A DNA stretch of 64,000 bases from Octopus vulgaris (Eukaryota): NCBI GenBank assembly GCA_951406725.2, contig OX597823.1:95418001-95482000 (forward strand). The letters are read 5' to 3'. A model generated the notes under the pieces. It ran no database searches. It was not told the origin of the DNA and worked only from the letters and a program-made list of their open reading frames with translations. Below are positions 2,943 to 52,387 of this stretch, piece after piece (within the stretch, counting starts at the first letter, position 1; each line of letters opens with the position of its first letter). The position numbers were made by a program, and so were the translations under genes.

Positions 2943-2950
2943 TCGTTTAC

Positions 2951-9150: not shown

Positions 9151-9306
9151 GTAATGAGATAAAACAAAGTTGTTTATGATTAAAAACCATCAAAGGATCT
9201 CCTTCTAATGGACGAGAGCAGATAAAGAATAAACGACAGAACATAATTGAACTTGCATTCAAATTTAAAAGTGAATATTTATGGTGTTTTATTGTTGTAT
9301 GCTTAC

Positions 9307-9461: not shown

Positions 9462-9502
9462 CTGAAAAGGATTAAAGAGACAAACTTAAATTTCATCTGA
9501 TT

Positions 9503-9540
<38 letters not shown>

Positions 9541-9611
9541 ACACACACACTCACACACACATGCACACACACACACATGCACACACACACGCACACACAC
9601 GCACACACACA

Positions 9612-16105: not shown

Positions 16106-16114
16106 GTCATAACC

Positions 16115-18110
16115 AACAAAGTTCCAGACAAAGCCATTAGAGCAAAGGAACAGGCCTGGAAAGCCTGGAGGGATGGGGGTAGCAGGGAACTGTACCAGGT
16201 AGCCAAAAGGGAGGCTGGGCGGCAGGTATGCATAGCCAAGGGTGAAGCAGAAAAGAAGTTTGCCAATGTCCGGCGATGTGAGGACCAAAGAACTGAGGTA
16301 TTTCGGATTGCTAGACAGTGTGTGAGAGAAAATTGTAATGTCACAGGTGAGAAATGCGTCCGCATGGATGATGGTGCACTTGCTTTCAATGTTTCTGAAA
16401 AGAAAGAGACTTGGAGAAGCCATTATGAGAGACTGCTGAATGTGGAGAATGAATTGGAGGAGGGGAGCCTGCCAAATGTTGACCCATTAGAGGGACCAGC
16501 TATCCCATTAGAGGGACCAGCTCCCTAGTAGATAAAGCAATTAAGGGTATGAAGCCAGGAAAAGCCCCGGCCCATCAGGAATCACTGCTGAAATGCTTAA
16601 AACATCTGGTGGTGTGGGCTATGGCCTAGTCACCTGCATTGTAAACCAGGTAGTTCATAATGAAGTCATACCCAATGACTGGCGTAGCAGCACCATAGTC
16701 AAGTGCTACAAGGGTAAAGGTGATGCTCTACAGGGGTATCAAACTGTTGGATCAGGTGATGAAGGTCACGGAGAGGGTCAGAGCCCATCTCATTAGGGAG
16801 AGAGTCTGCTTAGTTGAGATGCAGTTTGGTTTTGTTCTGGGTAGAAGCACCACTGATGCCATATTCCTGGTTCGACAACTGCAGGAAAAATACCTAGCTA
16901 AAGATAAACCCCTCCACATAGATTTCGTGGACTTGGAGAAAGCCTTTGACAGGGTCCTCTGGTCTCTTATCTGGTGGGCGATGCGGAAACTGGAGATTGA
17001 CGAATGGTTAATAAGGGCTATACAGGCCCTATACAGAGAAGCCGTCAGCAAGGTTAGGATTGGCAACGAGTATAGTGAAGAATTTCGGGTAGAAGTAGGG
17101 GTCCACCAAGGTTCAGCGCTCAATCCCTTTTATTCATCATAGTCCTCCAGGCAATAACAGAGGAATTCAAAACGGGTTGCTTCTGGGAGCTCCTCTATGC
17201 TCAGAGTGAAAGGTAGAGTGTACGACGCATGTGTACGAACTGCCATGCTTCACGGCAGTGAAACATGGGCTGCGACTGCAGAGGACAAGCATAGGCTTGA
17301 AAGAAATGAAGCTAGCATGATCTGCTGGATGTGTAATGTCAGTGTGCACATACGACAGAGTGTAAGCGCCCTGAGGGAAATGCTGGACATAAGAAGCAAT
17401 GGATGTGGCGTGCAACGTCCGCGCTGGTATGGTCATGTACTACGGATGGATGAGGAGAGATGTATGAAGAAGTGTCACTCTCAAACAGTTCAAGGAATCC
17501 GGAGTAGAGGTAGACCCAGGAAGACATGGAATGAGGTGGTCAAGCATGACCATCGAACATTGAGTCTCACAGAGGCAATGATGAAAGACCGAGACCTCTG
17601 GAGATATGCTGCGACTGCGAAGATTCGACAAATAACGTGAGTTCATGTCTGTTTCCTGCATCAGCTTCACATAGAAGTACCAGTCCATCCAAAGTGCCTT
17701 GGATCGCAGGAAGGCCTGCTGTGCTTGAGGAGACCTATTGAATCAAGTACATCAACATCAATAAATCAAATGGAAATTGTAGTTGTGATACCTGTGCTAG
17801 TGGCACGTAAAAAGCACCATCCGAACGTGGCTGATGCCAGTGCCACCTTGACTGGCTTCCGTGCCGGTGGCACGTAAAAAGCACCAACCGATCGTTGCCG
17901 TTGCCAGCCTCCCCTGTCACCTGTGCCGGTGGCACGTAAAAAGCACCCACTACACTCACGGAGTGGTTGGCGTTAAGAAGGGCATCCAGCTGTAGAAACA
18001 CTGTCAGATCAGACTGGAGCCTGGTGCAGCCTCCTGGCTTCCCAGACCCCGGTCAAACTGTCCAACCCATGTTGGCATGGAAAACGGACGTTAAACGATG
18101 ATGATGATGA
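16115..18110 (+). mobile_element. RTE-clade LINE, 5'-truncated with an internal deletion, (GAT)n tail
   Basis: QFGFVLGRSTTDAIF, FVDLEKAFDRV, GVHQGS, LHGSETWA, RGRPRKTW; 3' end ggaaaacggacgttaaac(gat)n. Confidence 0.9.
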
Positions 18111-18466: not shown

Positions 18467-19091
18467 ATTACCTATACACGCATGAAACTACGGTTTACGT
18501 TTTGAATTACCCGCGGATTTATACCTTATAACAAGGACCATACCTGCTGAGGTAATTACCAGGAGTGCCTCTGGATACATTTATCCCTTAGAGGATTTAA
18601 ACACCTCTACCTATACCTCCCGTTCATGTGCTCCTGTTTCTGCGTAGATCATAACCCCCCACCCATTCGTTCCTTATTATCTATCTATTTCCTTACCATG
18701 TAAATATAGTTCCGATAGCTTCGTCTCTCTTGTTTGTCTTAAGGTCATGCATATCCGTTAATCGTCATATTTTATTTATTTTATTCAAGTTTATCGTTTC
18801 GTTAATTCATTCTCTCTAAATTTGTCTAACCATAGTATACAAGTGCAGAAGACGATGCTCTCGTCTAAATTTGCTGGTTCGCGGTACACCCTCCCACCCC
18901 CTCCATACTCACCGGAAGTTTCTATCCTCTGTCATCCTTGGTTGTCTTCCGCGAACACTTCTAAGGGCCTCTGCCATCCCCTCACCTACCTAGGGTTTAT
19001 TGATCATATGGCGCATAAAAATGGTGTAGTGTATGCAGGTTGTAGTCTAGTGTTTATTTATGAATTGTGCCAAATGCAAGCTTTCTTTTCA

Positions 19092-22000
19092 GGTACGCGA
19101 CACTGCTGTCCCTCATCCCAGGGTCTCACAGGCCCACACCTCTCACACCCTCAGAGTTGGCACACTCAACGTCGGCACACTGAAATTTAGGTCTGGTGAG
19201 ATTGTTGAGATGCTTGAACGGAGAAGTGTAGATTTGTGCTGCATCCAAGAAGTAAGGTGGAGAGGAGGTTCCGCTAGGTTCATCACACGCAAAGAACACA
19301 CGTACAAGATTGTCTGGGCAGGGAACTTGACGGGGTCGGGGGCATGGGTATACTTCTTGCGGAGAAATAGGTGGATAAGGTGATCGAGGTAGTCAGAGTG
19401 TGCGACGGAATACTTAAGATTAGATTAGTGCTTCACCATAGGATAGCTACCATTATCTCGGCCTATGCCCCTCAGTCGGGGCTACCGGATGTGTAGAAAG
19501 ACCGATTCTATGACACTCTACTGCAGACTACCTCGTTGACGAATGACAGGGACTTTCTCTTTGTGGCTGGCGATTTTAATGGACATGTTGGACAACATGC
19601 AGGGAGCTTCCATGGCTATGGTTTTGGTTCCCGCAATGAGGAGGGAACCAGGCTGCTGGAGTTTTGCGATGTAAATGATCTTATGGTTTGCAACACCAAC
19701 TTCAGGAAACCCACCTGTCACCTAGTCACCTACCGTTCTGGCAAACACACTTGCCAAATTGACTACATCCTCGCAAGAAAAAGGGAAAGAGGGCTGTTTA
19801 TAAATGCCAAAACCTTCCCAGGCGAAGAATGTACCCCTCAACATAGATTAGTAGTTAGTGACTTCGGGATCAGGGCTAAATGGATGCCCAGAAGAACAGC
19901 TTGGAGGAGAAGGGTCTAGAAGCTTAAAGATCCTGCAAATGGACAGAGATTTAGAGACGTATTACTCGAAGCCTTCGACGAAATAGAAGGGGATATAGCT
20001 TTACATAATGTGGAAGACAACTGGAGGTTTCTTCAGGACAACTTGCTGAGAGCCACTGACCAGATCTGTGGATGGTGCAAAGTTCCCTCTCGACCCAAGG
20101 TAACGTGGTGGTGGAACAATGTGGTTGACAGGGCTATTAGACAAAAGAAACAGTCTTGGAAGGACTGGAGGAACGGTGGTAGCAGGGAATTGTATCAGAC
20201 CTCCAGAAGGGAAGCTAGGAGATAGGTTTATTTAGCCAAAGGGGAAGCAGATAAGAAAAAATTTGCCAGTGTTCTGCGCCGTGGGGACCAAAGACTTGAG
20301 GTATTTCGTGTTGCAAGACAGTGTGTGAGAGAGAATTGTGATGTTGTAGGAGAGAAATGTGTTAGCATGGATGATGGCTCACTTGCGCTAAATGAGGCTG
20401 CAAAGAGAGAGGTTTGGAGACGCCACTATAAAAGGTTGCTGAATAAAGAAAATGAATGGGAGAAAGAGAGTCTGCCGAATGTCAAGCCAGCAGAGGGACC
20501 AGCTATCCGAGTAGATAAAGCAATTGAGAGTATGAAGACAGGAAAAGCCCCCGGCCTATCAGGAATCACTGCAGAGATGCTCGAAATATCTGGCAGTGTC
20601 GGCTATAGCCTAGTCACCCGTATAGTTAACCAGGTGATACACGAAGGATTCATACCCAATTACTGGTGTAGCAGCACCATAGTCAACTGCTACAAAGGTA
20701 AAGGTGACGCTTTAGATACAAATAATTACGTAGGTATGAAGTTATTGGATCAAGTAGTGAAGGCCACGGAGAGGGTCATAACCCAACTAGTCAGGGAGAG
20801 AGTCAGTTTAGATGAGATATAGTTTGGGGTTCGTGCCAGGGAAAAGAACCACTGATGCTATATTTCTGGTAAGACAGCTGCAGTAGAAATACCTAGCCAA
20901 AGATAAACTTCTGTACATGGCTTTCGTTGACATGGAGAAAGCATTTGACAGGGTCCCCCAATCCCTTATCTGGTGGTCAATGAGGAATCTAGGGATAAAT
21001 GAAGGGTTAGTGAGAGCTGTGCGAGCCATGTACGGGGACGCCGTCAGTAAGGTGAGGGTTGACAACGAGTACAGTTAAGAATTCTGGGTAGAGGTAGGGG
21101 TCCACCAAGGTTCAGTCCTCCTCCTCCTCCTATTTATCATAGTCCTCCAGGCAATAACAGAAGAATTCAAGATAGGATGCCCCTGGGAGCTCCTCTTTGC
21201 TGATGACCTTGCTCTAATTGCTGAGTCACTATCAGAACTAGTGGAGAAGTTTCAGGCGTGGAAACAAGGATTAGAATCGAAGGGCCTTAGAGTCATCTAG
21301 CTAAAACTAAAGTCTTAATAAGGAAGAAGGTAGAAAAACCACAAACCCCTTGAAGTAGATAGCCCTGCTCGATCTGTAGAAAAGGTGTAGGTAGAAACTC
21401 TATAAGATGTACCCAGTGGAAGCCATGGACACATAAGAGATGCAGCAATGTCAAAGAAAGGCTAACTAGGAAGGTAGTTTTTGTATGTGGCAGATGCTCA
21501 GGAGCAATAAACACTGAAAATGTGCAGAGAAAACCTTCAGCCACATTCCAGGGAGAAAAACTAGAAGTAGTTGATAGCTTCCATTACCTAGGTGACCAAG
21601 TCAGTAGCGGAAGAGGGTGCGCTAAAAGTGTAGCTGCTAGAATAAGAATAGCCTGGGCAAAGTTCAGAGAGCTCTTACCTTTGCTGGTGACAAAGGGCCT
21701 CACGTGCAGAGTAGAAGGTAGACTGTATGATGCATGTGTACGAATAACCATGCTACACGGCAGTGAGACATGGGCTGTGACTGCTGAGGATATGCGTAAG
21801 CTCGCAAGGAATGAAGCCAGTATGCTCCGCTGGATGTGTAATGTCAGTGTGCATACTAGACAGAGTGTAAGTACCTTGAGAGAAAAGTTGGACCTAAGAA
21901 GCATTAGATGTGGTGTGCAAGAGAGACGGCTGCATTGGTACGGTCATGTGGTAAGAATGGATGAGGATAGCTGTGTGAAAAAGTGCTACACCCTAGCCGT

Positions 22001-22785
22001 TGAGGGAACCTGTGGAAGAGGTAGACCCAGGAAGACCTGGGATGAAGTGGTGAAGCATGACCTTCGAACATTAGGCCTCACCAAGGAAATGACTAGCGAC
22101 CGAGACCTTTGGAAATATGCTGTGCTCGAGAAGACCTCGCAAGCCAGATGAAACCATAACCCGTGGCCTATGCCAGGAGCATACCCAGCCCGCATATGCG
22201 TAGCTTTTCCTTCTTTGGTAACTAAACTTTGCTTGCGAAGTCCTGTTGAGGCAAGTGGAATCAAAATCGAACCAAATTCGACTGGCACCCATGCCAACCT
22301 TACGATGACCTCTTGAACCAAATTCGATGACTGGCACCCGTGCCAGTGGAGCGCTAACAGCTCCATCCAAGCGAGATCACTGCCAGAGCAGCTGTCTGGC
22401 TTCCGTGCCAGTGGCACGTAAAAAAGCTCCATTTGAGCATGAGCGTTACCTGCGTTGCCTTACTGGCACATGAACAAAATATTCGAGCAAGGTCGTTGCC
22501 AGTGCCACTGGACTGACTCCTGTGCAGGTGGCACATAAAAAGCACCATTTGAGTGTGGCCGTTGCCAGTACCGCCAGACTGGCCCTTGTGCCAGTGGCAT
22601 GTGTATGCACCCACTACACTCTTGGAGTAGTGAGCGTTAGGAAGGGCATCCAGCTGTAGAAACTCTGCCAGATCAGATTGGAACCTGGTGCAGCCATCTG
22701 GTTCGCCAGTCCTCAGTCAAATCGTCCAACGCATGCCAGCATGGAAAGCGGACGTTAAATGACGATGATGATGATGATGATGATA
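19092..22785 (+). mobile_element. Near full-length RTE LINE (APE endonuclease, RT, PHD-like finger) with multiple stops and frameshifts
   Basis: RVGTLNVGTL...CIQEVRW, VAGDFNGHVG, QIDYIL, QHRLVV (APE); RT motifs; LFADDL; 3' UTR and (GAT)n tail. Confidence 0.93.
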
Positions 22786-24053: not shown

Positions 24054-24212
24054 TTTATTAATAAAGCTGCAAAGACATCACAAAAAATGGCTCTTCAGAG
24101 TTTCATGTTCCTGTTAGTCAGATAGTTTTAGATAAATATATAGCTTGGTAGGTAGATACATGGATAGATGTTTTAGCTTGCATGTGGGAAGTGACCTGCA
24201 AAATAACCTTAC

Positions 24213-24435
24213 CTCAGTGGTGATTGAGGTGTGTGTGTTGGTTTTATCATACACCCAAGAACTGCACTTCTGTGTAGTTTCATTTCCATTTTCTGTGGTA
24301 TTGGAATATATCAAACATTTTTCATAAACCACCTCCCCTTCATCCTCACTCTTTGGAATATATTCGTTTATCAGTTCTTCATGGATTTCACTTTGGATTT
24401 TATACGTGTCGTTGTCGTAACCAGGAATAGCACAC
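24213..24435 (-). CDS. SLC22-like transporter exon 2 (large extracellular loop)
   Basis: Acceptor ttttcctag|G; CAIPGYDNDTYKIQSEIHEELINEYIP...EKCLIYSNTTENGNETTQKCSSWVYDKTNTHTSITTE with conserved Cys, N-glycosylation sequons and a WVYD...SITTE motif; donor GAG|GTAAGG; 223 nt, phase 2 to 0. Confidence 0.93.
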
Positions 24436-24903
24436 CTAGGAAAATATACAAAATAGGTTTCTTTGATCTTTCATTTAAATTTAGTTACATCTTCTGTAGC
24501 TTTCAGACTTGTGGACCTTACCATACATTTGAAAATATTTCGTTTGATGAATTTTATAGACAGAAATAAGTATTCTTATCTCGGTGCAGAGGTCCAGTGT
24601 ACTGTCTCTCACTTAAGGCGACTGAATTATACTGAAACACTGGCTGTTTCAGAGTCTGCCATGTCACTGAATTCTGCATTGTCAACACACGTCGTCTCAA
24701 AGGGAGAAACGTTTATTCAGGCAAAATCCAAGAACGCGAAACATTATTTACTTTTCAAGTCTGCTGGAATACACGCATCAGTGATCTGATTCTCACTGCT
24801 TTCCATGCTCTGGGTAATTTAATATATAATATGCATACACACGCACACACTTACACACGCATATGTATGAATGTATACAAGGTGTTTTCCACTAATATAT
24901 GTA

Positions 24904-25596: not shown

Positions 25597-27135
25597 TTAA
25601 CGTCTGCTTTCCATGCTAGCATGGGTTGGACGATTTGACTGAGGACTGGCAAACCACATGGCTGCACCAGGTTCCAATCTGATCTGGCAGAGTTTTTACA
25701 GCTGGATGCCCTTCCTAACGCCAACCACTCCAAGAGTTTAGTGGGTGCATACATGTGCCAACGGCATGAGTGCCATCCAGCAGCACTGGCAATGACCTCA
25801 CTTGAATGTTTTTTTCCCGTGCCACCGGCACAAATACCACTGAGGCGATGCTGGTAATGTAATGGAAGCCAGTCAGCTGCTCTAGCAACGATCACACTCG
25901 GATGGTGCTCTAGCACTCCACTAGCATGGGTGCGAGTCATCGAATTTGATTTGATTTCACTTGCCTCAACAGGTCTTCGCAAGCAGAGTTTATTGTCCAA
26001 TGAAGGAAAGGTATGCATAAGTGGGCTGGTTACACCCCTGGCATAGGTCACAAGGTTATGGTCTCACTTGGCTTGCCGGGTCTTCTCGAGCACAGCATAT
26101 TTCCAAAGGTCTCAGTCACTAGTCATTGCCTCGGTGAGGCCTAATGTTCGAAGCTCGTTCTTCACCACCTCATCCAAGGTCTTCCAGGGTGTGACACTTT
26201 TTCCCACAGCTGTCCTCATCCATTCACAACACATGACCATACCACCGCTGTCGTCTCTCTTGCACACATCTGATGCCTCTTAGGTCCAACTCTCAAGGCA
26301 CTTACATTCTGTCTAATATGCACACTGACATTACACATCCAGCGGAGCATACTGGCTTCATTCCTTGCAAGCTTACGCATGTCCTCAGCAGTCACGGCCC
26401 ATGTTTCACTGCCATGTAGCATGGCTGTTCGTACACATGCGTCATACAGTCTACCTTTTACTCTGAGCGTGAGGCCCTTTGTCACCAGCAAAGGTAAGAG
26501 CTCTCTGAACTTTGCCCAGGCTATTCTTATTCTAGCAGCTACACTCTCAGTGCACCCTCCCCTGCTACTGACTTGGTCACCTAGGTAATGGAAGCTATCA
26601 ACTACTTCTAGTTCTTCTCCCTGGAATGTGACGGAAGCTGTTCTCTGCACATTTTCAGTGTTTATTGCTCCTGAGCATCTGCCACATACAAAAACTATCT
26701 TTCCAGTTAGCCTTCCTTTGATATTGCAGCACCTCTTATGTGTCCATGGCTTACACTGGGTACATCTTATAGAGTTTCTACCTACACCTTTTCTACAGAT
26801 CGAGCAGGGTCATCTACCTGAAGGGGTTTGTGGTTTGTCTACCTTCTTCCTTATTAGGACTTTGGTTTTTGCTAGGTTGACTCTAAGGCTCTTCGATTCT
26901 AATCCTTGCTTCCACACCTGAAACTTCTCCACTAGTTCTGATAGTGACTCAGCAATTAGAGCATGGTCATCAGCATAGAAGAACTCCCAGGGGCATCCTG
27001 TCTTGAATTCCGGTGTTATTGCCTGGAGGACTATGATAAATAGGAGCGGGCTGAGAACTGAACCTTGGTGGACCCCTATCTCTACCTGGAATTCTTCACT
27101 GTACTCATTGCTAACTCTCACCTTACTGATAGCGT
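25566..27135 (-). mobile_element. 5'-truncated RTE LINE, opposite orientation to 19092-22785
   Basis: GVHQGSVLSPLLF, FYADD, LHGSETWAV; (CAT)n tail at 25566-25593; peptides nearly identical to the 21522 ORF. Confidence 0.92.
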
Positions 27136-27480
27136 CATATAAATATACAAATCTGTATGAGTTAGAGGTTAAGAAGCCATCTAAGGGATATTAAATATCC
27201 AATATGTTACTGGGTGTATACCTACGTATTTATAACCAAGTGCTTACTATTGCATGGCAATATCGCAATTGAATACTAGGTATGAGGTGGTGGTAAATTA
27301 GAAATTTAGCCAGGATTTATAAGGCAGATAAGTGAATGGAGAGGATAAACAATAGACAAACTTCAGCCAGTTAACATTCAATTAAGTATATTTATTAAAT
27401 GATTACAAACATATGTATGAGTGGTACAAATCATGAAATGGAAAAAGGCAATAACTGCATAAACAGACATATATGTACGC

Positions 27481-29931: not shown

Positions 29932-32109
29932 TAGGGGCAGGTGTGGCTGTGTGGTAACAAACTACGTTCCAAACACATGGTCCTGAGTTCAGTCCCACTG
30001 TGTGGTGACTTGGCATGTGTAGGCACAAACACTCTGTCTTCACATTTGCTGCGTGAGACATGTTTTAATGTTGACAAGCTTGCAGAGTACATAGCCGACA
30101 ATGAGTCAAAGCTCCTTCCAGAACAGAAGTTCGCTTACAACTCCGTTGTTAATTCAGTCCGGGCAAAAGCTGGGGGGATTTTTTTCCTGGACGCTCCTGG
30201 GGGCACTGGGAAAACTTTTGTCAACAAATTAATATTGGCTGAGATTAGGCGAACACAAGGCATTGCCCTAGCTGTGGAATCATCTGTAATTGCGGTTACT
30301 TTGTTGCCAGGCGGCAGGACAGCTCACTCCACTTTCAAGCTCCCGCTTGACTTAGCGAAGACTGAGACACCAACTTGCAACATCAGTAACAGCTCCGATC
30401 AGGCAGAAGTCTTCAGACGATGCAAGCTTATCGTTTGGGATTAATGCACGATGGCCCACAGACGTGCTCTTGAGGCACTAGATAGATCTCTCAGAGACAT
30501 CAAACACTCTTCAGCTCCCATGGAAGGCATAACACTTTTTCTTTCAGGGGACTTCCAACAAACACTTCCCGTCATTCCCAAAGGGACTAGAGCTGATGCA
30601 GTAAGTGCGTGTCTTAAGTCATCCACATTGTGGCCACTGGTGAAGACTCTCAAACTCCACACCAATATGCGTGCTCATATGCAACGGGATATCACATCAT
30701 CAGCATTTTCTCACATCCTCCTTGCACTTGGCGAAGGCAAAATACCAGGGGATGAAAATGGTAATATTGCCATCGATTCCATTTGTACCATTGTTAAAAC
30801 GCCTTCTGATCTCAGAGATGCAGTGTTCCCAGATCTACAAGCTAATTATCAGAATATGGATTGGATTGGCCAAAGGGCTATTCTGGCCCCGAGGAATAAA
30901 ACTGTTCACCATATTAACGATGAAATGCTAAAACTCATTCCTGGGGATGTCTATGTATATAAGTCTATCGATACAACTCCTGACACAGAGGACGTAATCA
31001 GCTATCCAATAGAGGTACTCAATTCCTTTGAGCCCCCCGGACTACCACCACACATTCTCAAACTTAAAGTTGGTGCCCCTATAATGCTCATTAGAAATTT
31101 GGTTCCCCAAAAACAATGCAATGGCACACGTTTCATCGTTAAGTCCTTATCTCCCAATCTGATTGAGGCCACCATTATCACAGGGTGCGGTCGAGGCAAC
31201 GTTGTGCTCATACCTAAGATGCATCTTTTCCCATCAGGAGCAGACCTACCTTTCATATTTCAGAGGTCCCAGTTCCCAGGAAGGCCATGTTTCGCAATGT
31301 CAATTAACAAAGCGCAGGGTCAAACACTGTCTTTGGCGGGAATACATTTGGGAGAGCCATGTTCCTCTCATGGTCAGCTTTATGTTGGCTGCTCGCGTGT
31401 CGGCAGCAACAGTGATGCTTTCGCATTCGTTCCACAACGAAAAACAAAAAACATTGTGTACAAGGAGGTTTTATAGGATTACGTTTCATCATTTTCGAAC
31501 ATGTTAGTATTTCACTTACATACGACTCTCTTTTATGATGGCATTTACATTTTTCGGCGTTTCATGACATTAATTCACACTTAACCAACACCTGTCCTTC
31601 GCTCACCTCTATTTCTATCCATTCATCATCAAACCACCAGCATCATCTTCTATATCCAACGTACATGACACATCTACCCCCTACATCTACACTCTCACTG
31701 TTAAAGTTTACATAAGCGACAACACGATCGCAACATACACTTTGGAAACTAAGCAACAGATCATTTTATACAACAACAAATTTAATCATAACGCCCATCA
31801 ATGAAAACATCTCTACCACTGTGTTGTGATTCATCTATTCAGCACCACTACAGTCTTGCCAGTCTGACATATGGTGAGTAGATGCTATTGTTCTATATTT
31901 TATAAATTACCCATATTTACTTACCCATGCTTCATTCCCCTCTTGCCTACTACAGCATGAAGTTTTGTAACAGCACATCCGCTGCCGTTCGTGGAAAACG
32001 AAGAGACCCTATTCTCAATATTTGCCTGAATAATCATCATAATTCAGTGCAATCATTAACAGTACTTTCAAGCAATTCAGCCCCGAGCATCGCCGGGCAA
32101 TTCTGCTAG
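28821..32109 (+). mobile_element. Helitron, internally deleted: Pif1-family helicase present, no Rep domain seen
   Basis: 5' A|TCTCTTATCTCTTATGATAAAAGGCAG; 3' hairpin gccccgagcatcgccgggc then CTAG|T. Confidence 0.9.
30030..31476 (+). pseudogene. Helitron Pif1-like helicase with one in-frame stop in Walker B
   Basis: DAPGGTGKT, GRTAHSTFKLP, IVWD*CTM (TAA at 30442-30444 in place of Glu), GDFQQTLPV, AMSINKAQGQT, HGQLYVGCSRV; ORFs 29941 and 30451 share one frame. Confidence 0.9.
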
Positions 32110-33160: not shown

Positions 33161-34082
33161 TGAAAGTCACATGTAAAACGATTGTAAAGATGTCTTGATC
33201 AGACATACCGCAGCCATGTAGGTTGTTCCCTGTCTCGATTATTTCTTATTTCTTTATTGCCACAAGGGGCTAAACATAGAGGGGGACAAACAAAGACAGA
33301 CAAAGGAATTAAGTTGATCACATCGACCCCAGTGCGTAACTGGTACTTAATTTAGCGGCAAGCTGGCAGAAATGTTAGCACGCGAAATGCATAGCCGTAT
33401 TTCGTCTGCCGTTATGTTCTGAGTTCAAATTCCGCTGAGGTCGACTTTGCCTTTCATCCTTTTGGGGTCGATTAAATAAGTACCAGTTACTTAATTAAAT
33501 AAGTACCAGCTTGTGGTCAGAGATGCACATATTGTCAGCCACTAAGGGTCATGCTGAACTGGTGAAGATCAAACAGCTGACAAGCAAATCAGTGGTATTG
33601 AGTGTAGCCCATCTTTTATACAATACAATGTACATGATAACACTTCCAACCAGTTAAAATTAGAAGCCACGAGAGCCACTACCTGGTACTGCATCAGAGA
33701 ATTTATTATTATTATTATTGTTGTTGTTGTTGTTGTTGTTATTGAGTGAGAGTAGCCACACCATCAAAGAGATGCTGAGGTATGAATATACAAAGCCCAA
33801 TATACATATCCATTGCTACGCATGTGATAAGGGTGCACCAGGCACATGCCTCACAACCATATATGCATGACATGGTGACCTCATATCAAGATAAACAATG
33901 CATGAATTTGCAGGTGTGACCCAGTTAGAATTTTCTTCAATTCAAGTAGCCTATCCTGCTCTTGTGTATGTATGTATGTATGTATGTATGTGTGGACCTT
34001 GGGAAGTGTTTTTTTTATTATTGCCTCAAGCTGACCAAAGCCTTGTGAGTTGATTTGGTAGACAGAAACTGAAAGAAGCCCG

Positions 34083-34629: not shown

Positions 34630-35127
34630 TTTTTGCAGGTCATAAAAAACAGGACGTGGAGTTTATTGTGACGAGCGAGATATATGTCAAGTTTACTGGG
34701 CCATTCATTAACGAAGGGAGGCAACTGCACAAAGCCTGGGTTTCTTTTGTCTCAGATATTTCCTGAAAGCAAGTGGCCTAGTGGTTAGGGGATTGGGTCA
34801 TACTTGTTGATCGTGGGTTCAAATCTGCGAGGGAAGATTGCGTTGGCTCCTTGAGTAAAGCGCTTTATTTCACTTTGCTCGTGTACTCAGAGGGAGAGGC
34901 CCTTTGTTACCAACACTTTTTTAGTAGGTAGAAAGTTACCATTCGATGGGAGTCCTGTATCCTCAGCTTAAATAACTTTAAAAACTAGGTAAGCTTGGGT
35001 TTCATGGTCCACAGGCTCAAGTTAGGGACAAACTAGAATATTTTGGAGCCTAAAAATTTTGTAGAAGAAAAGCCTCCTCCACACATACATATTCATATAT
35101 GACCACACAAACAAACGCACACATATG

Positions 35128-35560
35128 TGTGTGTGGAAGGTGCACAGTTACAATCAAAGACTCCATCAAATGCCAGGAGAGAAAACTAGAAGTAGTTGAT
35201 AACTTCCGTTACCTAGGTAACCAAGTCAGTAGTTGGGGTGGATGCTCTGAGAGCACAGCTGCTAGAATAGGAACAGGCTGGGCAAAGTTGAGAGAGCTCC
35301 TACATTTGTTGGTAACAAAGGGTCTTTCCCTCAGAGTGAAAAGTAGATTGTACGATGCCTGTGTGCAAACAGTCATGCAACACGGCAGTGAAACATGGGC
35401 TGTGACCATTGAGGGCATGCGGAGGTTTGAAAGAAATGATACTAGTTGGATGTGCAATGTCAGAGTGCATGTATGACAAAGCGTAAGCCTCTTGAGAGAA
35501 AATGTGGTGTGCAACTGCAGTGGTATGGTCATGTGATGCATATGGACAAGGACAGCTGTG
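35128..35560 (+). mobile_element. RTE LINE fragment
   Basis: LEVVDNFRYLGNQ...RLYDACVQTVMQHGSETWAV. Confidence 0.82.
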
Positions 35561-36473: not shown

Positions 36474-36818
36474 TAAGTACAAAGTGAGATAGGGGTTATG
36501 AGTGTAACCAACTATGGGATATCAGTTATCCAATATACTGCTGGTGTAGTACCCAAAAGGCAAATACATAAATGCTTATAATTGCAATGCAATTAATTCA
36601 TTTATTGTATTAGATGGGCGAAGGTAAAATATTTTACCTCAAATTCATAATACAAATAAGAAAATGGAGGAACAGATTCCTTTCAATCATCGACTTACAG
36701 ATATTACCAATTCATATTATTTATTAATTACTTAAATAGGAACATCCAAATCCAACAGAATAAAACAATATACATCAATAAGTCAGATAATATCATAAAA
36801 ATAATACACATAAAATGT

Positions 36819-36942
36819 ATCTCACAGCTTTTTCAGCCTGTAGATAAAGGTATCTCATTGTGCCTATATTAGTCAGATGTATTGAGGCAATATGCAGTTA
36901 AAAATTAGTTATATATATATACCTCAAGGCCTCGTCAGAGAT
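36819..36942 (-). ncRNA. Hammerhead motif, degenerate copy
   Basis: ATCT CTGACGA GGCCT...AGGCT GAAAA AGCT GTG AGAT (two substitutions in stem III and the cleavage site). Confidence 0.6.
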
Positions 36943-37041
36943 TATAAAGGACAAATATAAAAATATACAAATGCAAATACAAATATGAAACAAAATAAAC
37001 ACACACAAGAATATATATATATATATATACACACACACATG

Positions 37042-37097
<56 letters not shown>

Positions 37098-37927
37098 AGT
37101 GTATATACATACATATATACATATATATAAGTATATATATAACAATATACATACACATAAGGTTACAGATAATCAAATATATATACTGGAGTATACATAT
37201 ATATCCACATCAATGGGTACATATACAAAGTCCAAATTTCATTACATTACATAACGAAAACTATTAATATTATTATTGTTATAAATAATACCAATATTGG
37301 AATATGTGCATTCTGCTATTGACAATACATAGTAGATGGAGAATACCACATAAAGTATAATATAATATAATCTAGTGTTATATAATATAATATATTGTAT
37401 ATCACATATATAATATAGTATAACATAATATATAGACAGATGCCTATGAAAGATGCAAGCACATTAATTCAACAAATAATGTAACAAATAATGTCATTAT
37501 ATTCATATATCATACAGTCAAAATCGAAACTTCAATCTTTTTATATTCTCAACATGCTCTTGTCACCAAAGAATGTACATTTATATGGATTGTAGTACTC
37601 TGTGTCAACCAATATTCTGTGCATGTTTGAATATACAGATACAATACCAATACCAATATCAATTCCTTCTGGAAACTATCTTAAGCATGTCCTTGAGAAT
37701 GATTTTTTATGTAGTAATCTTTTATGCCCAATATTTTAAGGAACTTGTTGAACTTTTTTATGTTCTTAACATGTCCCTGTTACCAAAGACTGTATATATG
37801 TAATGTAGCAATTTGTAACAACCAATAATTAACGCAACCAAACTTCTTCATGTTACTTTTGACAATCTTTTTCCAAAAGTGAAACCGGTAAAGTAAATAA
37901 ACATCTTTAAATTGCATTTTCAAACCT

Positions 37928-37989
<62 letters not shown>

Positions 37990-38055
37990 TTGTGTATGTG
38001 TATTTTGTTTCATTTTTGTATTTGCATTTGTATATTTTTATAATTGTACTTTATA

Positions 38056-38181
38056 ATCTCTGACGAGGCCTTGAGATATATATATAAGTAACTCATTTTT
38101 AACTGCATATTACCTCAATACATCTGACTAATATAGGCACAATGAGATACCTTTATCTACAGGCTGAAACACCTGTAAGAT
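38056..38181 (+). ncRNA. Type I hammerhead ribozyme motif with intact core and an 89-nt stem II loop
   Basis: ATCT CTGACGA GGCCT [89 nt] AGGCT GAAAC ACCT GTA AGAT: stem I ATCT/AGAT, CUGANGA and GAAA cores, GUA cleavage triplet. Confidence 0.75.
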
Positions 38182-38582
38182 CCATTTTATGTGTATTATT
38201 TTTATGGTATTATCTTACTTATTGATGTATATTGTTTTATTCTGTTGGATTTGGATGTTCCTATTTAAGTAATTAATAAATAATATGAATTGGTAATATC
38301 TGTAAGTCGATGATTGAAAGGAATCTGTTCCTCCATTTTCTTATATATATATATTTTTTTTTATAGTCCACAAATGAGATCCAGAGATTCTCCGTGTAGA
38401 AGACAGTGCTCAAAAGGTTCAAACATAGATTCTGATGTCTTTACAAGGGATCAGTTCCATGGGATAAAGAATGGGTATAAGAGGGACCAGGTTGAATAAG
38501 TATAGAAGCAAATATAGGGATAAGCAACTTAGATACACCAAATGTATTAATTGAATTTAGTGCTTAATACACTTAATATATT

Positions 38583-38990
38583 AGGTTGGTGAGCTGGCAG
38601 AATCGTTAGCACGCTGAGTGACTTGCCTAGCGGTATTTCATCTGCAGTTCAACTTCCACCAAGGTCGCCTTTGCCTTTCATCCTTTTGGGGTCGATTAAA
38701 TAAGTACCAGTTACACACTGGGGTCGATGTAATAGACTTAATCCGTTTGTTTGTTCTTGTTTGTCCCCTCTGTGTTTATCCCCCTGTGGGTAATGCATAA
38801 ATAAATATATTTCATATTTTACGTTCCGAGTTCAAATTCCGCCGAGGTCGACTTTGCCTTTCATCCTTTTGGGGTCGATTAAATAAGTACCAGTTACACA
38901 CTGGGGTCGATGTAATAGACTTAATCCCTTTGTCTGTCCTTGTTTGTCCCCTCTGTGTTTATCCCCCTGTGGGCAATGAAGAAATAAATA
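38583..38990 (+). mobile_element. Tandem SINE copies with a Tx1/L1-like 3' tail (related piece at about 33245-33500)
   Basis: gagctggcagaatcgttagc head, gagttcaaattccgccgaggtcgactttgcc core, tail tgtccttgtttgtcccctctgtgtttatccccctgtggg. Confidence 0.75.
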
Positions 38991-39043
38991 TATTTCATAT
39001 ATTTGATGCATCTAATTTGCTTATCCAAATAATTGCTTCTGTA

Positions 39044-43019: not shown

Positions 43020-43217
43020 CATACACGTATATATATTACAAATAAGAAAATGGAGAAGCACAGGAGTTGGTTCATCAGCTTTAGGATATTAAAATGTTGA
43101 CTTATTTATTTATCAAAACGACAACCATAATAACATATATACATATAGTACATTATTCAATGCATATAAGATAATAATACAAGTAGTTATTAAAAAACAT
43201 GAATATAAATTATTAAA

Positions 43218-43343
43218 ATCACTTACAGCTGTTTCAGCCAATGGATAATAGTAACTCATTGTGCCTATATAAGTCAAGTGTATTGAGGTGGTAGGTAGTT
43301 GAAAATGACGTACTTATATATATCCCTAGGCCTCGTCAGAGAT
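43218..43343 (-). ncRNA. Type I hammerhead ribozyme motif with perfect core and palindromic stem III
   Basis: ATCT CTGACGA GGCCT...TGGCT GAAAC AGCT GTA AGTGAT; stem I is weak in this copy. Confidence 0.72.
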
Positions 43344-43395
43344 TATAAAGTACAATAAAAAATATAAATATATACATGAAACAATATACACGCAC

Positions 43396-43483
<88 letters not shown>

Positions 43484-43514
43484 ATAACAATTCATACATA
43501 CCGGTCAATATATA

Positions 43515-43841
43515 AACACAAAAACCGGGGAAATAGTCACAAACGCGAATATGAACTGCAAAAGCAGAAATTTAATTTACTGCATCAAATGCCCAAATTG
43601 TGAAGAAATATATGTAGGTCAGACGGGAAATGCACTATCAGAACGCTCACGTCTACACCGACAACAGATTAGAGACCCAGAGGTCCGTCAGATACCTTTG
43701 AGTAACCACCTAGCAACACGTGGTCGGAAAATATATATAATATTTCCATTCTACAAATTACACAGCCCAAGTGAAATCGAGAGGAAAATCAGAGAAAAGA
43801 ATTTTATTGATAAATTCGAATCCAAGCTAAATAAGCAATAA
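43515..43841 (+). mobile_element. Penelope-like element GIY-YIG endonuclease C-terminal fragment
   Basis: [39 protein letters not shown]...LSNH...RKIREKNFIDKFESKLN. Confidence 0.88.
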
Positions 43842-44484
43842 TAATAATACTTAGAGGTACTACTTCTACTGCTACGACCATGACCATTAACAACAACAAC
43901 AATACTAAAGGTGATCAAGATGAATATAGCAGGAAAATGATCTTATTTAGGGTTAAAAGTTCTATTGCCACCACCATCACCACTAGCAACAGTAATTAAG
44001 GTGCTGACAATGATGATGATGAGAATTGAAATATAAAAATCCCTGACAAAGGCTATTTACAACATTTCTAAAAACAGCCCAACAATTGCTGCCTCGGCCA
44101 GGGTTAAGATACAGGACTCTTGACATGTTCAACAAAGCGTGACGCCTAAACCAATCAGCTTAAGTAATTGAGTGATGCTACACACTGATTTGTCAGAATA
44201 CAGTTTGCAAAACCTAGCAATCTGGAGACACAGGTGTATTTAAGGCACAGATTTAACCATCTCGCTACAGTCAAAAATTGTGAAGCATGACTGTCACCAC
44301 TGCTACATGAACCTGAAGATTGCATAATTTAATACATGAAAGTAATAGTTCAATCAGAATGAACATTCAACATATTATTATCTTATTTTGTTTTATTATA
44401 TTATATTATCTTATATTATATTATTATAAGATTGTAAATAAAACGTGAAAATCAGACAAGGTTGGAATTCCTGTTATTAATATA

Positions 44485-46909
44485 CTAGCAGCATAGCACG
44501 GCGTTGCCCGGGTATGTAAAAGCCCCTAGTTGGCAACGACTAATCCCGATCTAGTCCTTTCCTTCTAGGGAACGAAGGCGCATGTGTAGGTTGCAATGTC
44601 TTCTCTTCACTCCAATACTTCTGTGTATACGACGTTCCTAGCTGTTCCTTTGGGCGAAAACATGAAAACATCATTGCGCCTCCCAACACGTGAACAGTCC
44701 AAGTAGAGTTGACCGTGGGCGAAGCACTGTTCGCCCAAATGTAACCCAGCGACTTGTAGCGATTGGCCTTGGGATTTATTGATGGACATTGCGAAGCAGA
44801 GTTTAACAGGAAACTGAGAATGCCTGAAGTGGATTGGTAGGTCAGCGCCCGGCGGTTGAAGGTGCATGCGTGGAATGAAGACGCCCTCTCCCTTCTCACA
44901 ACCGGTAAGTATTGTTGCCGTTATTAAATGTGGTGCCAAATGTTTCATAACCAGATGTGTGCCGTTGCACAGTTTAGGTGGAACCAAATTCATGATGAGC
45001 ATAATGGGCGCACCGACTTTTAACTTCAGGATGTGTGGCGGCAAGCCTGGCGGTTCAAGTGAATTCAGGAATTCAACAGGATAATCGGCAAGCTCGGCGG
45101 GGTCTGCTGTCCTATCTATAGATTTGTAGACGTGGACATCACCAGGAATAGCTTCAAGTAGCTGGATATTGATGGAGTTGACGGTTGTATATTTGGGTGC
45201 GAGAATAGCTCTGCCTACCAGCCATTTTAGGTCGCGTAGATTGTTTTGTAGGTCGTGGAAGACAGCGTCCCGGGGGCTAGCAGGGGTGTCGACAGTGGTG
45301 CAAAGTGAGTCCAATTGAACGCAGCCGTCCGCATATTTTCACCGAGCGATAAAAGGTCCCTGGTGAATGCAGCGGATCCGCAGTCACCAATCAACTGCGC
45401 GCGCATGTTAGTTGTAGGTGCAAGGGCCGCACATGTGCCCAAAGAACTGACGACTTAAGGCACATGCGCATGGTATCGGCACGGGTACCTTTTGGAATAA
45501 CAGATAGAGTCTGCCTGAAGTCTCCTGAAAGAAGTAAAGTCAATCCTCCCATGAGTGCCGTAGAGTCTCTGATGTCTTGCAGGGACCTGTCCAGTGCCTC
45601 AAGGGTGCCTTTGTGTGCCATAGTACACTCGTCCCATACGATGTGTTTGCATCTGTGCAGAATGTCGGCCTTTTCTGAGTTCTTGGCGATGTTGCAGATA
45701 GGTGACTCGGACTTTGCCAGATCGAGCGGGAGTCTGAAGGCAGAGTGGGCGGTTCTGCCACCCGGAGGCAACGTGGCCGCGATACCAGAGGAAGCTACAG
45801 CTAGGGCAATGTCCATGTTGCGTCTGACCTCCGCCAGAATTAGTTTCGTGACGAAGGTTTTGCCAGGGTCGCCAGGTGCGTCAAGGAAGTAAATCCCCCC
45901 ACGTTGCTGTCTGACAGAGTCTACGATGGTGTTGTAGGCTATGCGCTGGTCTAGAAGCAGTTGTGGTTCATTATCATGGACGTACTGGTGCAGTTCCTCA
46001 ATGCAGTAGGAAGTTTCGCGTAACAATTCAGCAGACATAACATTGGCGTGTTCACGTGTGGGTGGTGGAAGGCCGTAGTCCGTTAAAGTAGAGCCACCCA
46101 TATCGATGACAGCGTCTTCGAGTTGAATAAGCGCAAAATTGTAAATGAGGTTGGTGAACGTGATCTCGACGGTAGGGCAGTAAGCTTTGGTTTGTATGTG
46201 GGATACCTTGAAGATTAAGTCTAGATTTCCTCCTGTGGGTTGAAATATCGATAGCTGTTTGATAGTTATTTGGGGGAGTAAGAGAGTTAAAGAAGGTCGA
46301 GTTGCGTCCCCTAGACAGTCTGTGGTTTGTGTTTAATACACAAATCGGTTTGCTATGTGTGCCACATGATTTAATTAACCGATTTTTTCCAGTAATAAAG
46401 TATCCTATTGGAATAAAAAGAGCCATATAGCTCCTTGGAGCAGACATGATGCTCGCTGTGAATTAAAAAAAAATTCCTGCCAATTTGTTAAATATATTGT
46501 CGAAAATATGTCATCTTGAATTTGAACGCAATTTCCCAAAATGGCATGATTTTATCGATTTTTTTTTATCGTAAGGTATTTCATGGAAAACTAACGTCAG
46601 AATTAAGTTCCTTAGGGTAACATTAAGCTTCACCATGAGCTTGGTGAAAATTGATTGCAAGAGTTGCGAAAACTACAACAGAAAATGTGTTGCATATGAA
46701 AAGCTTAGATTCTCGACCCCATGTCGAATTTATAAATTTTTTCAGAACTGGGGGAACTTTCCAAAGTTTTCGCTGCGTTAGTTTTGAATTATGACATTGG
46801 GCTATGTGTGTGTCAAGTGTCATCAGAATCGGTAGAAAGCCGTGGTCAGGGTGAGGGTACAACCTGACAGACACACAGACAGACAAACTGCCTTTTATAT
46901 ACAGAGAGA
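44485..46909 (-). mobile_element. Helitron with frameshifted Pif1-like helicase
   Basis: 5' A|TCTCTCTGTATATAAAAGGCAG at 46909; 3' cccgggcaacgccgtgctatgctgCTAG|T at 44485; DAPGDPGKT, WDECTM, GDFRQTL, AMSINKSQGQS. Confidence 0.9.
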
Positions 46910-46984
46910 TTCTTCTATACACAATCACACACACCCGTATATATATCTATATAAACACATATATACACATATATGTGTATATGG

Positions 46985-47590
46985 TCTGCTTCTTGGTATC
47001 CTTCTGGCCTCAAGCCTAAAGTCACTAATGACTAGCCTATGCTGGGAAGTACATTCTTCACCCAGGAGGGTCTTTATATTTAAGAGCAACCCTGCGTTCC
47101 GGTATCTGGTGAGGATGAAATCAATCTGACTAGCAGAGTCCCCCGATTGATAGGTTATCAGATGGCTGTCTGGCTTCCTGAAGTTAGTGTTGCAGATTAA
47201 AAGGTTACATGCATCACAGAACACCAGTAGCCTGGTTCCCTCATCGTTTCGGGTGCCAATACCATGGCTACCGTGTACCCCAGTGAAGATATCAGATTGC
47301 CGCCCAGCATGCCCATTAAAGTCTCCAGCCACAAAGATGAGGTCATTGCCACTCGTCTTTGAGGTAGCCTGTAGAAGGGTATCATAAAAGTGGTCCTTCT
47401 GATCATTTGCTAGCGCCGCATGTGGGGTGTAGGCGGAGATAATTGTAGCTGTGCTGTTCTGCAGGACCAGCCTGAGCTTAGGCACTCTATCACATACCCT
47501 AACAACCTCTATGACTCTATCCACCCGTTTCTCCGCAAGGAGTATGCCTACACCCCTACACCATCCATGTTACCTTGCCAGAAGACTTTA
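46985..47590 (-). mobile_element. RTE LINE APE endonuclease fragment
   Basis: [40 protein letters not shown]. Confidence 0.85.
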
Positions 47591-49007: not shown

Positions 49008-51014
49008 GGGGCGTTGTTATTGTGTGTACGTGAGTTAATGCTGAAATATTTATTGAATTGTTGTTCAAATTGTTACCATTGTTGATTCTGTAATTGTTGT
49101 TTTGTTCCCCATTGTGGGGAGATGGAAAAGGCGCTAGGGGAAGGCCCAAGTTATGCGGCCGTAACTGGCGAAGGAGTAGACGTGCAAGAGTTGGAGGTCC
49201 GCGAGTTAAAGTGGAACCTCGAAAGGTGAAGAAGGAGTGTGAACAGTTTGTCACAATGGAAGGAAGTACTTTGAAGCTGAAGCCACCCGAGGAGCTATCT
49301 ACGAATGTGACAAAGAGAACAGTAGTGTACAAAACCATGAAGGCAGCCACTAGGAAAATAGAGGTTGCCCCTATAGCGGTAATAGAAGAATGTATCAAAG
49401 ACATAAAAAGATACACAGCATTCGTTACAAGAGGAAGAAGATATGCGACTGTGGAGGTGCGCTTCGCAACGGAGGAGGAAGCAGTTAAACACTCCACGGA
49501 GGCTATAAGATCGGAGGAGTGGGTGCTCTTGCCTTCGTACTGTGGCAAACGTGTGGCCAAAGTACGAGTGGATAAGGTGCCACCCGAACTGAAGGAGGCA
49601 TGGCTGATGACAGCCATAACGTATAATATGAAAGAAGGAAAGATTTTGAAGGCCACGAGGACCCAGAAGGTGGACTACTGGGGTTATGGAATTGAATTGA
49701 CTATACAGGCAACAACGGAGGATTGGAACAGTGTGGTGGATGAGATTGTCCTCCCAGAAGATGTGAGACTGAGAGTTACAGTGGAGGGTAGGCCGCCGAT
49801 ATGCTTTTCATGTGGAGAAAAGGGCCACATGAAGGCATGGTGCACCCAGAAAAAGCAACAAGGAGAGCAGGTGGAGAGAGAAGAGAGCGTGGACCAGGTA
49901 GAACAGGTCGAGGCAAAGGAAAAAAAAACAGAGGATGATTTTACTGTGGTAAAAAAAAGAAGGAAGAGCGGAGGGAAGGGATGTCCGCCAGAGAAACAGA
50001 AAAAGAAGAGAGAAGAGATGAGAAAAGAAACTGTGAAGGAGGTCAGCAGGAAGGAAGACAAAAGGGTGACAGAGAAAGAAAGTAAAAAGAAAGTGGAGCT
50101 ACAAGTAAAGATACCAGTTGTTCCGGTGGGAAAGGATTCGGAAATTCAACTGGCCGAAGAAGAGATGGAGAGACTGTTTAGAGTGGAGGAGGAAAAGAGA
50201 GAACAAAGAGTTCAAAATAAAGGAAGGAAAATACAAGGAGGAAATGGAGTATGGTATTACGTGACCTACCCAAAGAATGTAGAAACAGAGAAGAAGATAG
50301 TCAAGTTTAATGAAATAGTAAGAGTGAAAGTAGCATCATACATATATGCAGAGGATATGAAGGCGATAGTGATAGAAAAGGAAAACTACAAGAAACTGGA
50401 AGAAATGTGTGGAGATAGTACTGATCCACCAGGAGTGAGGGTGGAATTCAAAGAATTGCCGCCAGTTGTGGATTTAATAGAAATCGAACCATTGAAGAAG
50501 TACTATTAAAAAGAAAATATGTTTGTTAAATTGAGAGAAAAAAAGGAAAGAAAAAAGAAAAAGGTAAAAAAAAATAAAAAAGGGAGAAAAAGTAAAAAAA
50601 AAAGTAAGAGTAAAGTGTTTTATGCTATGTTTAAAAAAAGTAGTGAAAAATCGAAGACCAATTGTAGATAATGTATATAACGGTTCAAATGGTACCGCAT
50701 GGAAGTGGGGCCCATGCAACCATTTTCATTTTTTATATAATTTCATCTCATTTACATTCGTTTATGTTTTTTGTCCCCACTGTGGTCTTGTCTGTCCTTG
50801 TGGTGTCCCGTCTGTGTTTGGGGCTTTATACCTAATAAAGAAATCCTCCAATTGAATTGTCACCTTGGGCGTTGTTATTATGTTTACGTGGGTTAATGCT
50901 GAAATAATTATTGAATTGTTATTCGAATTGTTGCCATTGTTGTTCAAATTGGTCTAGTCTGTCCTTGTGGTTTCCCCTCTGTGTTTGGGGCATTATGCCT
51001 AATAAAGAAATCTG
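49008..51014 (+). mobile_element. ORF1-only Tx1/L1-like non-autonomous element plus a mini-copy, flanked by a putative TSD
   Basis: tgtagtgcctt at 48997-49007 and 51021-51031; the 5' segment is repeated at about 50866-50945 and the 3' tail at about 50785-50845 and 50952-51012. Confidence 0.65.
49256..50509 (+). CDS. LINE ORF1-like nucleic-acid-binding protein with a zinc knuckle; probable original start at 49122, now frameshifted
   Basis: Long open frame; CFSCGEKGHMKAWC (CX2CX4HX4C) after RVTVEGRPPIC; K/E-rich tail with FTVVKKRRK; upstream out-of-frame MEKALGEGPSYAAVT. Confidence 0.75.
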   Translation: MEGSTLKLKPPEELSTNVTKRTVVYKTMKAATRKIEVAPIAVIEECIKDIKRYTAFVTRGRRYATVEVRFATEEEAVKHSTEAIRSEEWVLLPSYCGKRVAKVRVDKVPPELKEAWLMTAITYNMKEGKILKATRTQKVDYWGYGIELTIQATTEDWNSVVDEIVLPEDVRLRVTVEGRPPICFSCGEKGHMKAWCTQKKQQGEQVEREESVDQVEQVEAKEKKTEDDFTVVKKRRKSGGKGCPPEKQKKKREEMRKETVKEVSRKEDKRVTEKESKKKVELQVKIPVVPVGKDSEIQLAEEEMERLFRVEEEKREQRVQNKGRKIQGGNGVWYYVTYPKNVETEKKIVKFNEIVRVKVASYIYAEDMKAIVIEKENYKKLEEMCGDSTDPPGVRVEFKELPPVVDLIEIEPLKKYY

Positions 51015-51659: not shown

Positions 51660-52387
51660 CCCCCAAACGCCATTTTGAAGTGTCGTCTTCCCTTCTTTTA
51701 CGCAGAAGAACGACACGTATCTCGACCAGATTGTGACTTGCGATGAAAAGTGGATTTTTTAGGACAACCGACGACACTCAGCTCAGTGGTTGGACACCGA
51801 CGAAGTTCCACGGCACTTCCCGAAGCCAAAATTGCACCAAAAGAAGGCCATGGTGACTGTTTGGTGGTCTGTTGCCGGTCTCATCCATTATAGCTATTTG
51901 GATCCAAGCGAAACCATTACGGCGGAGAAGTACTGTCAGCAAATGGATGAAATGCATAAGAAACTCCGACAACAGCCAGCATTGGTCAATAGATAAGGAC
52001 CAATTCTTCTCCACGACAATGCTCGGCCGCACGTCGCACAATTGACCCTGCAGAAGTTGAACGAATTGGGCTGCGAAACTCTGCCTCATCCGCCATACTC
52101 ACCAGACCTCTCGCCTACCGATAACCATTTTTTCAAGCATCTTGACAACTTCCTGCGTGAGAGATGCTTCAAAAACCAAGACGATGCCAAAGACGCCTTC
52201 AACGACTTCATCACCACCAGAACGCAGGATTTTCACGCTACTGGCATAAATAAACTTGTTTCGCGTTGGCAAAAGTCTGTTGATTCTGATGGTGTTTCTT
52301 TCTATTAATAAAGTTTTGTTTGGGCCGAGATATGTGCATCTGAATTTAAAGGTTAAAAACCACAAGAACTTTCTTGATAACCTAATA
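51660..52387 (+). mobile_element. Mariner (Hsmar1/SETMAR-like) transposase 3' part with right TIR
   Basis: IVTCDEKWI, LHDNARPH, HPPYSPDLSPTD; end aactttcttgataacctaata. Confidence 0.88.

Follow-up and report, generated by a model that had tools for sequence, protein, structure and literature searches.

An abundant dispersed repeat in Octopus vulgaris carries a type I hammerhead motif with a predicted long stem II arm

Repeat copies and neighbouring elements at the locus

The window, the whole 64,000-nucleotide stretch of Octopus vulgaris DNA analysed here, contains two copies of a ~360-bp unit arranged as inverted arms (36656-37012 on the minus strand and 37986-38344 on the plus strand; Table 1). 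Pairwise alignment shows that the arms are reverse complements, as the first-pass annotation had stated, with 95.5% identity and 16 differences over 359 aligned columns. They are divergent, head to head, with (TA)n at the 5′ end of each arm and an 840-bp spacer between them. The minus strand also holds a third, diverged copy (about 43036-43400), and an nhmmer profile search of the whole 64 kb found no fourth. The start of the unit, after (TA)n, agrees to within a few bases among the three copies; (TA)n is present at the 5′ ends of 3/3 copies and at the 3′ ends of 2/3, the outer end of the left copy having none. No target-site duplication is found at the junctions of the inverted pair, and the search for a 30-40-bp one-sided tail of the type seen in Penelope-like elements (PLEs) found a 5-nt extension only; both features are optional in PLEs. 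The unit has no coding capacity, with stops throughout the six frames of each copy.

The spacer carries an internal direct repeat of ~77 bp (37538-37614 and 37755-37827, 77% identity, 213 bp apart). One minus-strand frame at this direct repeat has 4 stops in 146 codons, without a protein match. Pfam searches of the spacer gave 0 families in 6/6 frames, and a protein search with one frame segment as the query gave 0 matches among 1.84 billion proteins. Kinship of the spacer with the 3′ UTR of the neighbouring Neptune-type element was considered and is not accepted, the likeness being weak (1/150 shuffles on one strand, 13/150 on the other).

Head to head with the third copy, across one (TA)40, lies a 5′-truncated Neptune-type PLE that is cut at the CXXC linker and is present at very high copy in 4/4 runs. 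Its GIY-YIG fragment shares 53-63% identity with five proteins, and three of these are ORFs of 698-724 aa comprising a reverse transcriptase (RT) and an endonuclease with a CX4CXXC linker, described in the available part of the source as a mark of the Neptune and Nematis clades (PMC8557442). The GIY-YIG fragment and the 460 bp past its stop are all high-copy (to 44300), and an apparent short hammerhead lies 472 nt after the stop. Relatives of the GIY-YIG domain were collected as the best 80 of 121 metagenome loci; 67 of these have at least 300 nt downstream, and 13 were dropped for short flanks. Three strict hammerhead descriptors, which proved too strict, matched 0, 1 and 0 of the 80 loci, and a relaxed one matched 50/67, in which the hammerhead core follows the ORF at a distance of 288-922 nt, a range that includes the position seen in the octopus fragment. 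In 49/50 of these loci the first stem II domain measures 10-16 nt (median 12.5); the 147-nt first match at the remaining locus, L025, overlaps a compact 10-nt motif there and is read as spurious. Many of the 50 loci (L001-L079) read GAAACCG and then UG, GG or AG, and the usual U-H cut triplet is not obvious.

Other mobile elements surround the repeats. Two decayed PIF1-helicase ORFs of Helitron type lie at 29935-31476(+) and 44607-46332(-), with PF05970 and PF21530 confirmed for 30445-31473, and what we take to be a Helitron-like 3′ end (CTAG plus hairpin) adjoins the Neptune-type element near 44486. SINE-like repeat copies at 33412-33490, 38636-38820 and 38829-39003, two of them in tandem with 183-bp spacing, presumably represent a cephalopod SINE. 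A 471-codon open frame at 49094-50509(+), with a zinc-knuckle-like CCHC motif and no Pfam family at E<=0.001, is assumed to resemble a LINE ORF1. From their translations, we take 16061-17640, 19051-22151, 26216-27190, 35054-35476 and 46925-47569 to be decayed RTE-type LINE fragments, and 8363-8908 and 51763-52308 to be mariner-like transposase pieces. Exon-like pieces on the minus strand (24114-24470, 9086-9550, 5741-5989, 4642-4977 and 2685-3200) presumably resemble an SLC22/MFS transporter gene; Pfam found nothing in the two intron-containing pieces searched, and the repeats lie upstream of the SLC22/MFS-like pieces or in an earlier intron.

Table 1. Coordinates of the repeat copies, their predicted parts and the adjacent element (window positions)
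Feature	Position	Strand	Remarks
Left copy of ~360-bp unit	36651..37012	-	C3 at 36938, G12 at 36834; dead by C15.2>A and A17>G at 36823
5-nt 3′ extension of left copy	36651-36655	-	common to third copy
(TA)n-(CA)n-(TA)n microsatellite, 5′ end of left copy	37013..37095	.	
Spacer between arms	37096..37932	.	no protein match
(TA)27 at 5′ end of right copy	37933..37986	.	
Right copy of unit	37986..38344	+	followed by short (TA)n
Type I hammerhead layout, right arm	38056..38181	+	stem I 38056-59/38178-81; predicted cut after 38177
Right-arm core parts	CUGACGA 38060-66; GAAA 38166-69; stem III 38169-76; A17 at 38177	+	
Stem II domain	38067..38165	+	99 nt, predicted rod of five helices
Rod helices IIa, IIb	38067-71/38161-65; 38074-78/38154-58	+	predicted
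Rod helices IIc, IId, IIe	38088-97/38141-50; 38104-10/38133-39; 38115-18/38124-27	+	predicted
Possible 75-nt GT-AG intron	38088..38162	+	signals resembling a donor, a branch point and a YAG, seen by eye
Conserved 3′ terminus of right copy	38328..38344	+	15/17 (88%) identical to third copy
Third copy	43036..43400	-	C3 43339, G12 43235, A17 43224; core intact, stem III palindrome perfect, stem I weak
(TA)40 common to third copy and Neptune-type fragment	43401..43480	.	
5′-truncated Neptune-type Penelope-like element	43482..44485	+	right end approximate; high-copy 3′ UTR
GIY-YIG domain of Neptune-type fragment	43488-43841	+	PF01541, E 1e-6
Decayed compact hammerhead of Neptune-type element	44308-44352	+	read by eye; not MFE fold

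The hammerhead motif and its stem II arm

Each arm holds a type I hammerhead layout with a long stem II insert, in agreement with the first-pass annotation, which had put the insert at about 89 nt. Specifically, stem II of the right arm closes with GGCCU and AGGCU around an 89-nt loop (38072-38160), the loop is 87 nt long in the left and third copies, and the two core halves are 97-99 nt apart in the copies. A matching hammerhead descriptor was found 2 times in 3.0 Mb of simulated order-2 Markov sequence. The elements of a type I hammerhead (CUGANGA, GAAA, a UH core and three stems) are found in the right copy, the third copy and the family majority, and the left copy departs from them at positions 15.2 and 17, confirming the core decay that had been proposed for it.

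Stem III of the right arm is interrupted by a private C at 38172. Because essentially all depth at this position reads G (about 100%, in 4/4 runs), we assign the palindrome ACAGCUGU to the family and the change to the right arm. The palindromic stem III of Penelope type, which had been named as a feature of such ribozymes, is thereby found in the family majority and in the third copy. Computed self-duplex energies of the 8-mer are -11.1 kcal/mol for the third copy, -4.7 for the left and -1.1 for the right; stem I of the third copy, read from its sequence, has only 2 contiguous pairs. Judged by sequence, neither arm of the inverted pair is an intact family member.

The hammerhead search suggested earlier as a check was negative against Rfam: no hammerhead match was obtained at the gathering score, nor among 150 of the 159 matches at E<=10, those listed being microsatellite-driven. 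The long insert may explain this miss. In unconstrained folds the hammerhead is absent in 3/3 copies, with a penalty of 3-7 kcal/mol. The abundant repeat carries a hammerhead motif, for which self-cutting is a prediction.

With moderate confidence, the stem II insert is predicted to form one long rod, about eight times the usual arm length. The rod is the minimum free energy (MFE) fold of the isolated stem II domain in 2/3 copies (right and third, not left), with energies of -16.7 kcal/mol in the right copy, -12.7 in the left and -17.4 in the third. The helix that had been proposed within the loop is indeed complete in the left copy (8/8 pairs), but not in the right (7/8) or third (5/8). When forced, it gives -9.1, -13.6 and -2.5 kcal/mol in the right, left and third copies, so that it is slightly ahead of the rod in the left copy and far less stable in the other two, and we reject it as the family fold. 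Folding z-scores of stem II are weak (-1.66, -0.09 and -1.3 for the three copies). One A-U/G-C compensatory pair is seen among the three copies, a covariation not above that of shuffled sequences (174 of 500). Of the 8 family variants that fall on paired sites of the rod, pairing is kept by 4, restored by 2, broken by 1 and left as a mismatch by 1. Changes that break a pair are depleted relative to those at unpaired sites (2/70 vs 10/44, p=0.001), a comparison in which the structure was partly drawn with the variants in view, and variation at all paired sites vs unpaired sites does not differ significantly (8/70 vs 10/44, p=0.12).

Abundance and conservation of the family

The family was sampled from public contigs matched to the right arm, in four runs with four organism labels. 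Matching contigs number 875, 457, 554 and 319 in the 4/4 runs, and the summed depth over the ribozyme in run X1 is 4e4-1.5e5, as against about 50-65 for single pieces. These values hint at a copy number of the order of 10^3, the depth itself being no copy number. Long contigs in runs X5 and X7 match 38045-38171 only. Metagenome contigs scanned with a pattern of the long-armed motif yielded 0 matches.

Conservation is concentrated on the hammerhead. A comparison of the right copy with the third shows identity at 115/146 positions (79%) of the hammerhead domain, compared with 78/155 (50%) for the 3′ flank (Fisher p=3e-7). The third copy had been described as keeping its catalytic nucleotides with a drifted loop; the catalytic nucleotides are kept, but the loop is 78% identical, against 50% for the 3′ flank. 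There are 34 sites in the family that vary at 5% or more, none of them among the 12 catalytic positions, and the sole core change falls on the free N7. The expectation that the core would be better conserved than its flanks holds for the domain as a whole; the invariance of the core by itself is not significant (0/12 vs 34/345, p=0.61). Loose ends before 38078 in X1, X5 and X7 belong to a diverged relative with N7=G and an altered 5′ strand of stem IIa.

Depth over the first 50 nt of the unit is down about 10-20-fold, and loose ends there show other upstream sequence. The two arms carry this same poorly represented 5′ segment, sit 1 kb apart and have minority alleles in common, for instance at 38272, a site at which the alternative letter makes up 62-83% of the depth. 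On these grounds a single head-to-head insertion of the inverted pair appears likelier than two independent ones.

Origin of the repeat and alternative readings

We consider it probable that the ~360-bp repeat, with its type I hammerhead and predicted 97-99-nt stem II rod, belongs to a Penelope-like retroelement that targets (TA)n, either as its pLTR or as a non-autonomous derivative. This reading rests on the motif, the abundance, the palindromic stem III, a hammerhead domain better conserved than the 3′ flank, and the (TA)n at 3/3 5′ ends. The first-pass annotation had reached a similar view: its dispersed, (TA)n-associated type I hammerhead family with an unusually long stem II stands. The non-autonomous status that it assigned is a possibility beside that of a truncated end of an autonomous element, and the retrozyme-like status is unsupported here, with 0/3 copies in tandem and no joints in the contigs of the four runs. 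No parent ORF with RT and GIY-YIG domains was found for the unit in the window, where the only such piece is on the opposite strand and appears to have a hammerhead of its own.

Metazoan PLE pLTR minimal hammerheads, as described in the available text of Cervera and de la Pena (2014, PMC4209133), resemble the unit in their type I order, short stem I, dimer-suited palindromic stem III, AT-rich flanks, many solo copies and nearby opposite-strand pairs. The unit differs in having no parent ORF in the window and in its stem II of 97-99 nt, where their descriptor has 3-7 bp and a 3-10-nt loop, a limit by which the family would be missed (PMC4209133). In layout the unit agrees with the consensus of metazoan PLE hammerheads (PMC4209133; PMC8557442 File S2). 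It has the palindromic stem III of the minimal PLE hammerhead and lacks its compact stem II. Hydra- and Neptune-clade hammerheads (Craig et al. 2021, PMC8557442) are alike in (TA)n targeting, inverted 5′ copies, an extra base after CUGANGA, a U before GAAA and, in several families, an ACAG..CUGU stem III; the longest loop II in the available part of their table is 35 nt (PMC8557442 File S2). Their core search, as far as the available text describes it, allowed a 7-17-nt spacer, and eight half-core cases are given at 35-50 nt (PMC8557442). Motif searches and inspection by eye found no match of the unit to three Octopus Naiad consensus 3′ ends in the available text, where line breaks can split motifs (PMC8557442), and none to the Hydra-1_Obim hammerhead row (PMC8557442 File S2).

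Two further systems bear on the arrangement. Animal non-LTR retrozymes, in the portions of the sources available (PMC7229834; 10.64898/2026.07.22.740005), are likewise short non-coding type I hammerhead units, probably pLTR-derived, with dispersed monomers. Their definition rests on tandem repeats together with a circular RNA; in the present family 0/3 copies are in tandem. Adineta vaga has EN+ Penelope insertions that share head-to-head inverted pLTRs, solo pLTRs, ~1-kb captured spacers and a one-sided tail (available text of PMC3846280). At the octopus locus there is no ORF between the repeats and no target duplication, and the one-sided extension measures 5 nt vs about 30 (PMC3846280). Our literature search found no report of this repeat family or of a PLE hammerhead with a stem II of ~90 nt; Repbase and Dfam lay outside that search and may catalogue the family. 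Hammerheads can in principle accommodate a long stem II arm, and we therefore confine the novelty to a natural, conserved and abundant long-armed form within a known hammerhead kind.

The insert could instead be, or include, a spliceosomal intron within stem II, whose removal would reduce the motif to a compact hammerhead with only 3 bp in stem II; we regard this as unlikely. The right and third copies, like family loose ends, have a donor-like AA/GTA at one shared position. There is a branch-like TGAC/CTAAT about 30-35 nt upstream, as well as a pyrimidine tract and CAG/G at 38160-63, and a donor whose use would give a perfect tetraloop stem is seen in the left copy only. There is precedent in the available text on PLE pLTRs, which carry introns, the D. 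virilis intron end abutting helix I such that spliced and unspliced ribozymes differ (PMC4209133). Each signal, however, doubles as a paired rod strand, the third copy has no AG, the left copy's donor G is absent among family variants at 5% or more, and the signals were judged by eye, without scoring; the absence of a skip joint in 4/4 runs weighs weakly, these being contigs of which none is on record as RNA. In the unlikely event that the long arm is a retained intron, splicing would switch the ribozyme between long-armed and compact forms, and such long-armed hammerheads would make up an abundant class that published descriptors miss and that may sit in Penelope-like families said to lack ribozymes. 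A true non-LTR retrozyme, that is, a self-contained non-coding unit with tandem arrays and a ~360-nt circular RNA that happens to be present in the window as monomers only, is quite unlikely. Its size would fit the 170-400 nt of animal retrozymes (350-390 bp in mussel, in the available text of PMC7229834), monomers are common in such families, and the three copies start together after (TA)n and have a common 3′ terminus despite 50% flank identity. Against this stand the 0/3 copies in tandem, the absence of go-back joints in the contigs of the four runs, though junction (TA)n could hide such joints, and a 5′ end that is maybe not fixed, given the depth drop and the other upstream sequence at the loose ends there.

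The unit might also be the pLTR of the adjacent Neptune-type element, with the third copy as the inverted 5′ copy of that element, which we judge very unlikely. The shared (TA)40 speaks for it, as does a weak 3′-flank likeness to the Neptune-type element (2/300 shuffles as high for the third copy, 17/300 for the right arm); the whole arm against the 3′ UTR gave 0/300 shuffles as high, mostly through AT-rich matches. The 3′ UTR is high-copy to 44300, however, with no loose end into the unit among the 24 listed of about 1,040, which argues against the third copy as an inverted pLTR of that element; an arm profile search also finds nothing in the Neptune-type element. The neighbour is probably not the parent of the unit, since it appears to have a short hammerhead of its own, placed past its stop as in its relatives. 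Unit and Neptune-type element most likely share a (TA)n target, and the latter is a candidate enzyme donor in trans. Least probable of all, and hardly credible, is a MITE-type DNA transposon bounded by terminal inverted repeats of 355 bp, in which the hammerhead-like motif is incidental: the long inverted repeats do enclose an 840-bp non-coding middle, with TA at one outer end, but the third copy is a solo arm with (TA)n on both sides, conservation is highest on the ribozyme and not at the ends, the spacer shows no transposase or other protein match in the searches above, and there is no target duplication.

Under the preferred reading, as a pLTR or derivative of a Penelope-like element, the unit would be transcribed, and its RNA would form dimers via the 8-nt palindrome, with cutting after GUA. 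Dimer cutting at low rates is described for other PLE ribozymes in the available text of PMC4209133, and protein help for cutting is considered possible (available text of PMC11167929); of the predicted animal retrozymes tested, 8/9 were inactive in the part of the source available (10.64898/2026.07.22.740005). The long arm would fold clear of the core and may bind protein or provide a promoter element. Insertion would fall to a Penelope-like enzyme with RT and GIY-YIG domains, which would nick (TA)n and start reverse transcription close to the conserved 3′ terminus. The inverted pair would likely be one insertion, a pLTR with an inverted pLTR, whose spacer was captured or inserted later; head-to-head inverted pLTRs, solo pLTRs and captured spacers of 0.9-1.5 kb are on record (available text of PMC3846280). 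The pair would since have decayed, with the left copy unable to cut and the right predicted to be poor at dimer pairing.

Published descriptors have a blind spot for such forms: a loop II limit of 10 nt (PMC4209133) and a core spacer limit of 17 nt (PMC8557442), as given in the available texts, leave long-armed hammerheads uncounted. If the family does not cleave, it would be a structurally odd yet ordinary pLTR relic; as a family that keeps the core while gaining a ~90-nt structured arm, it may offer a natural test of the roles of arm, palindrome and core in cleavage and mobility.
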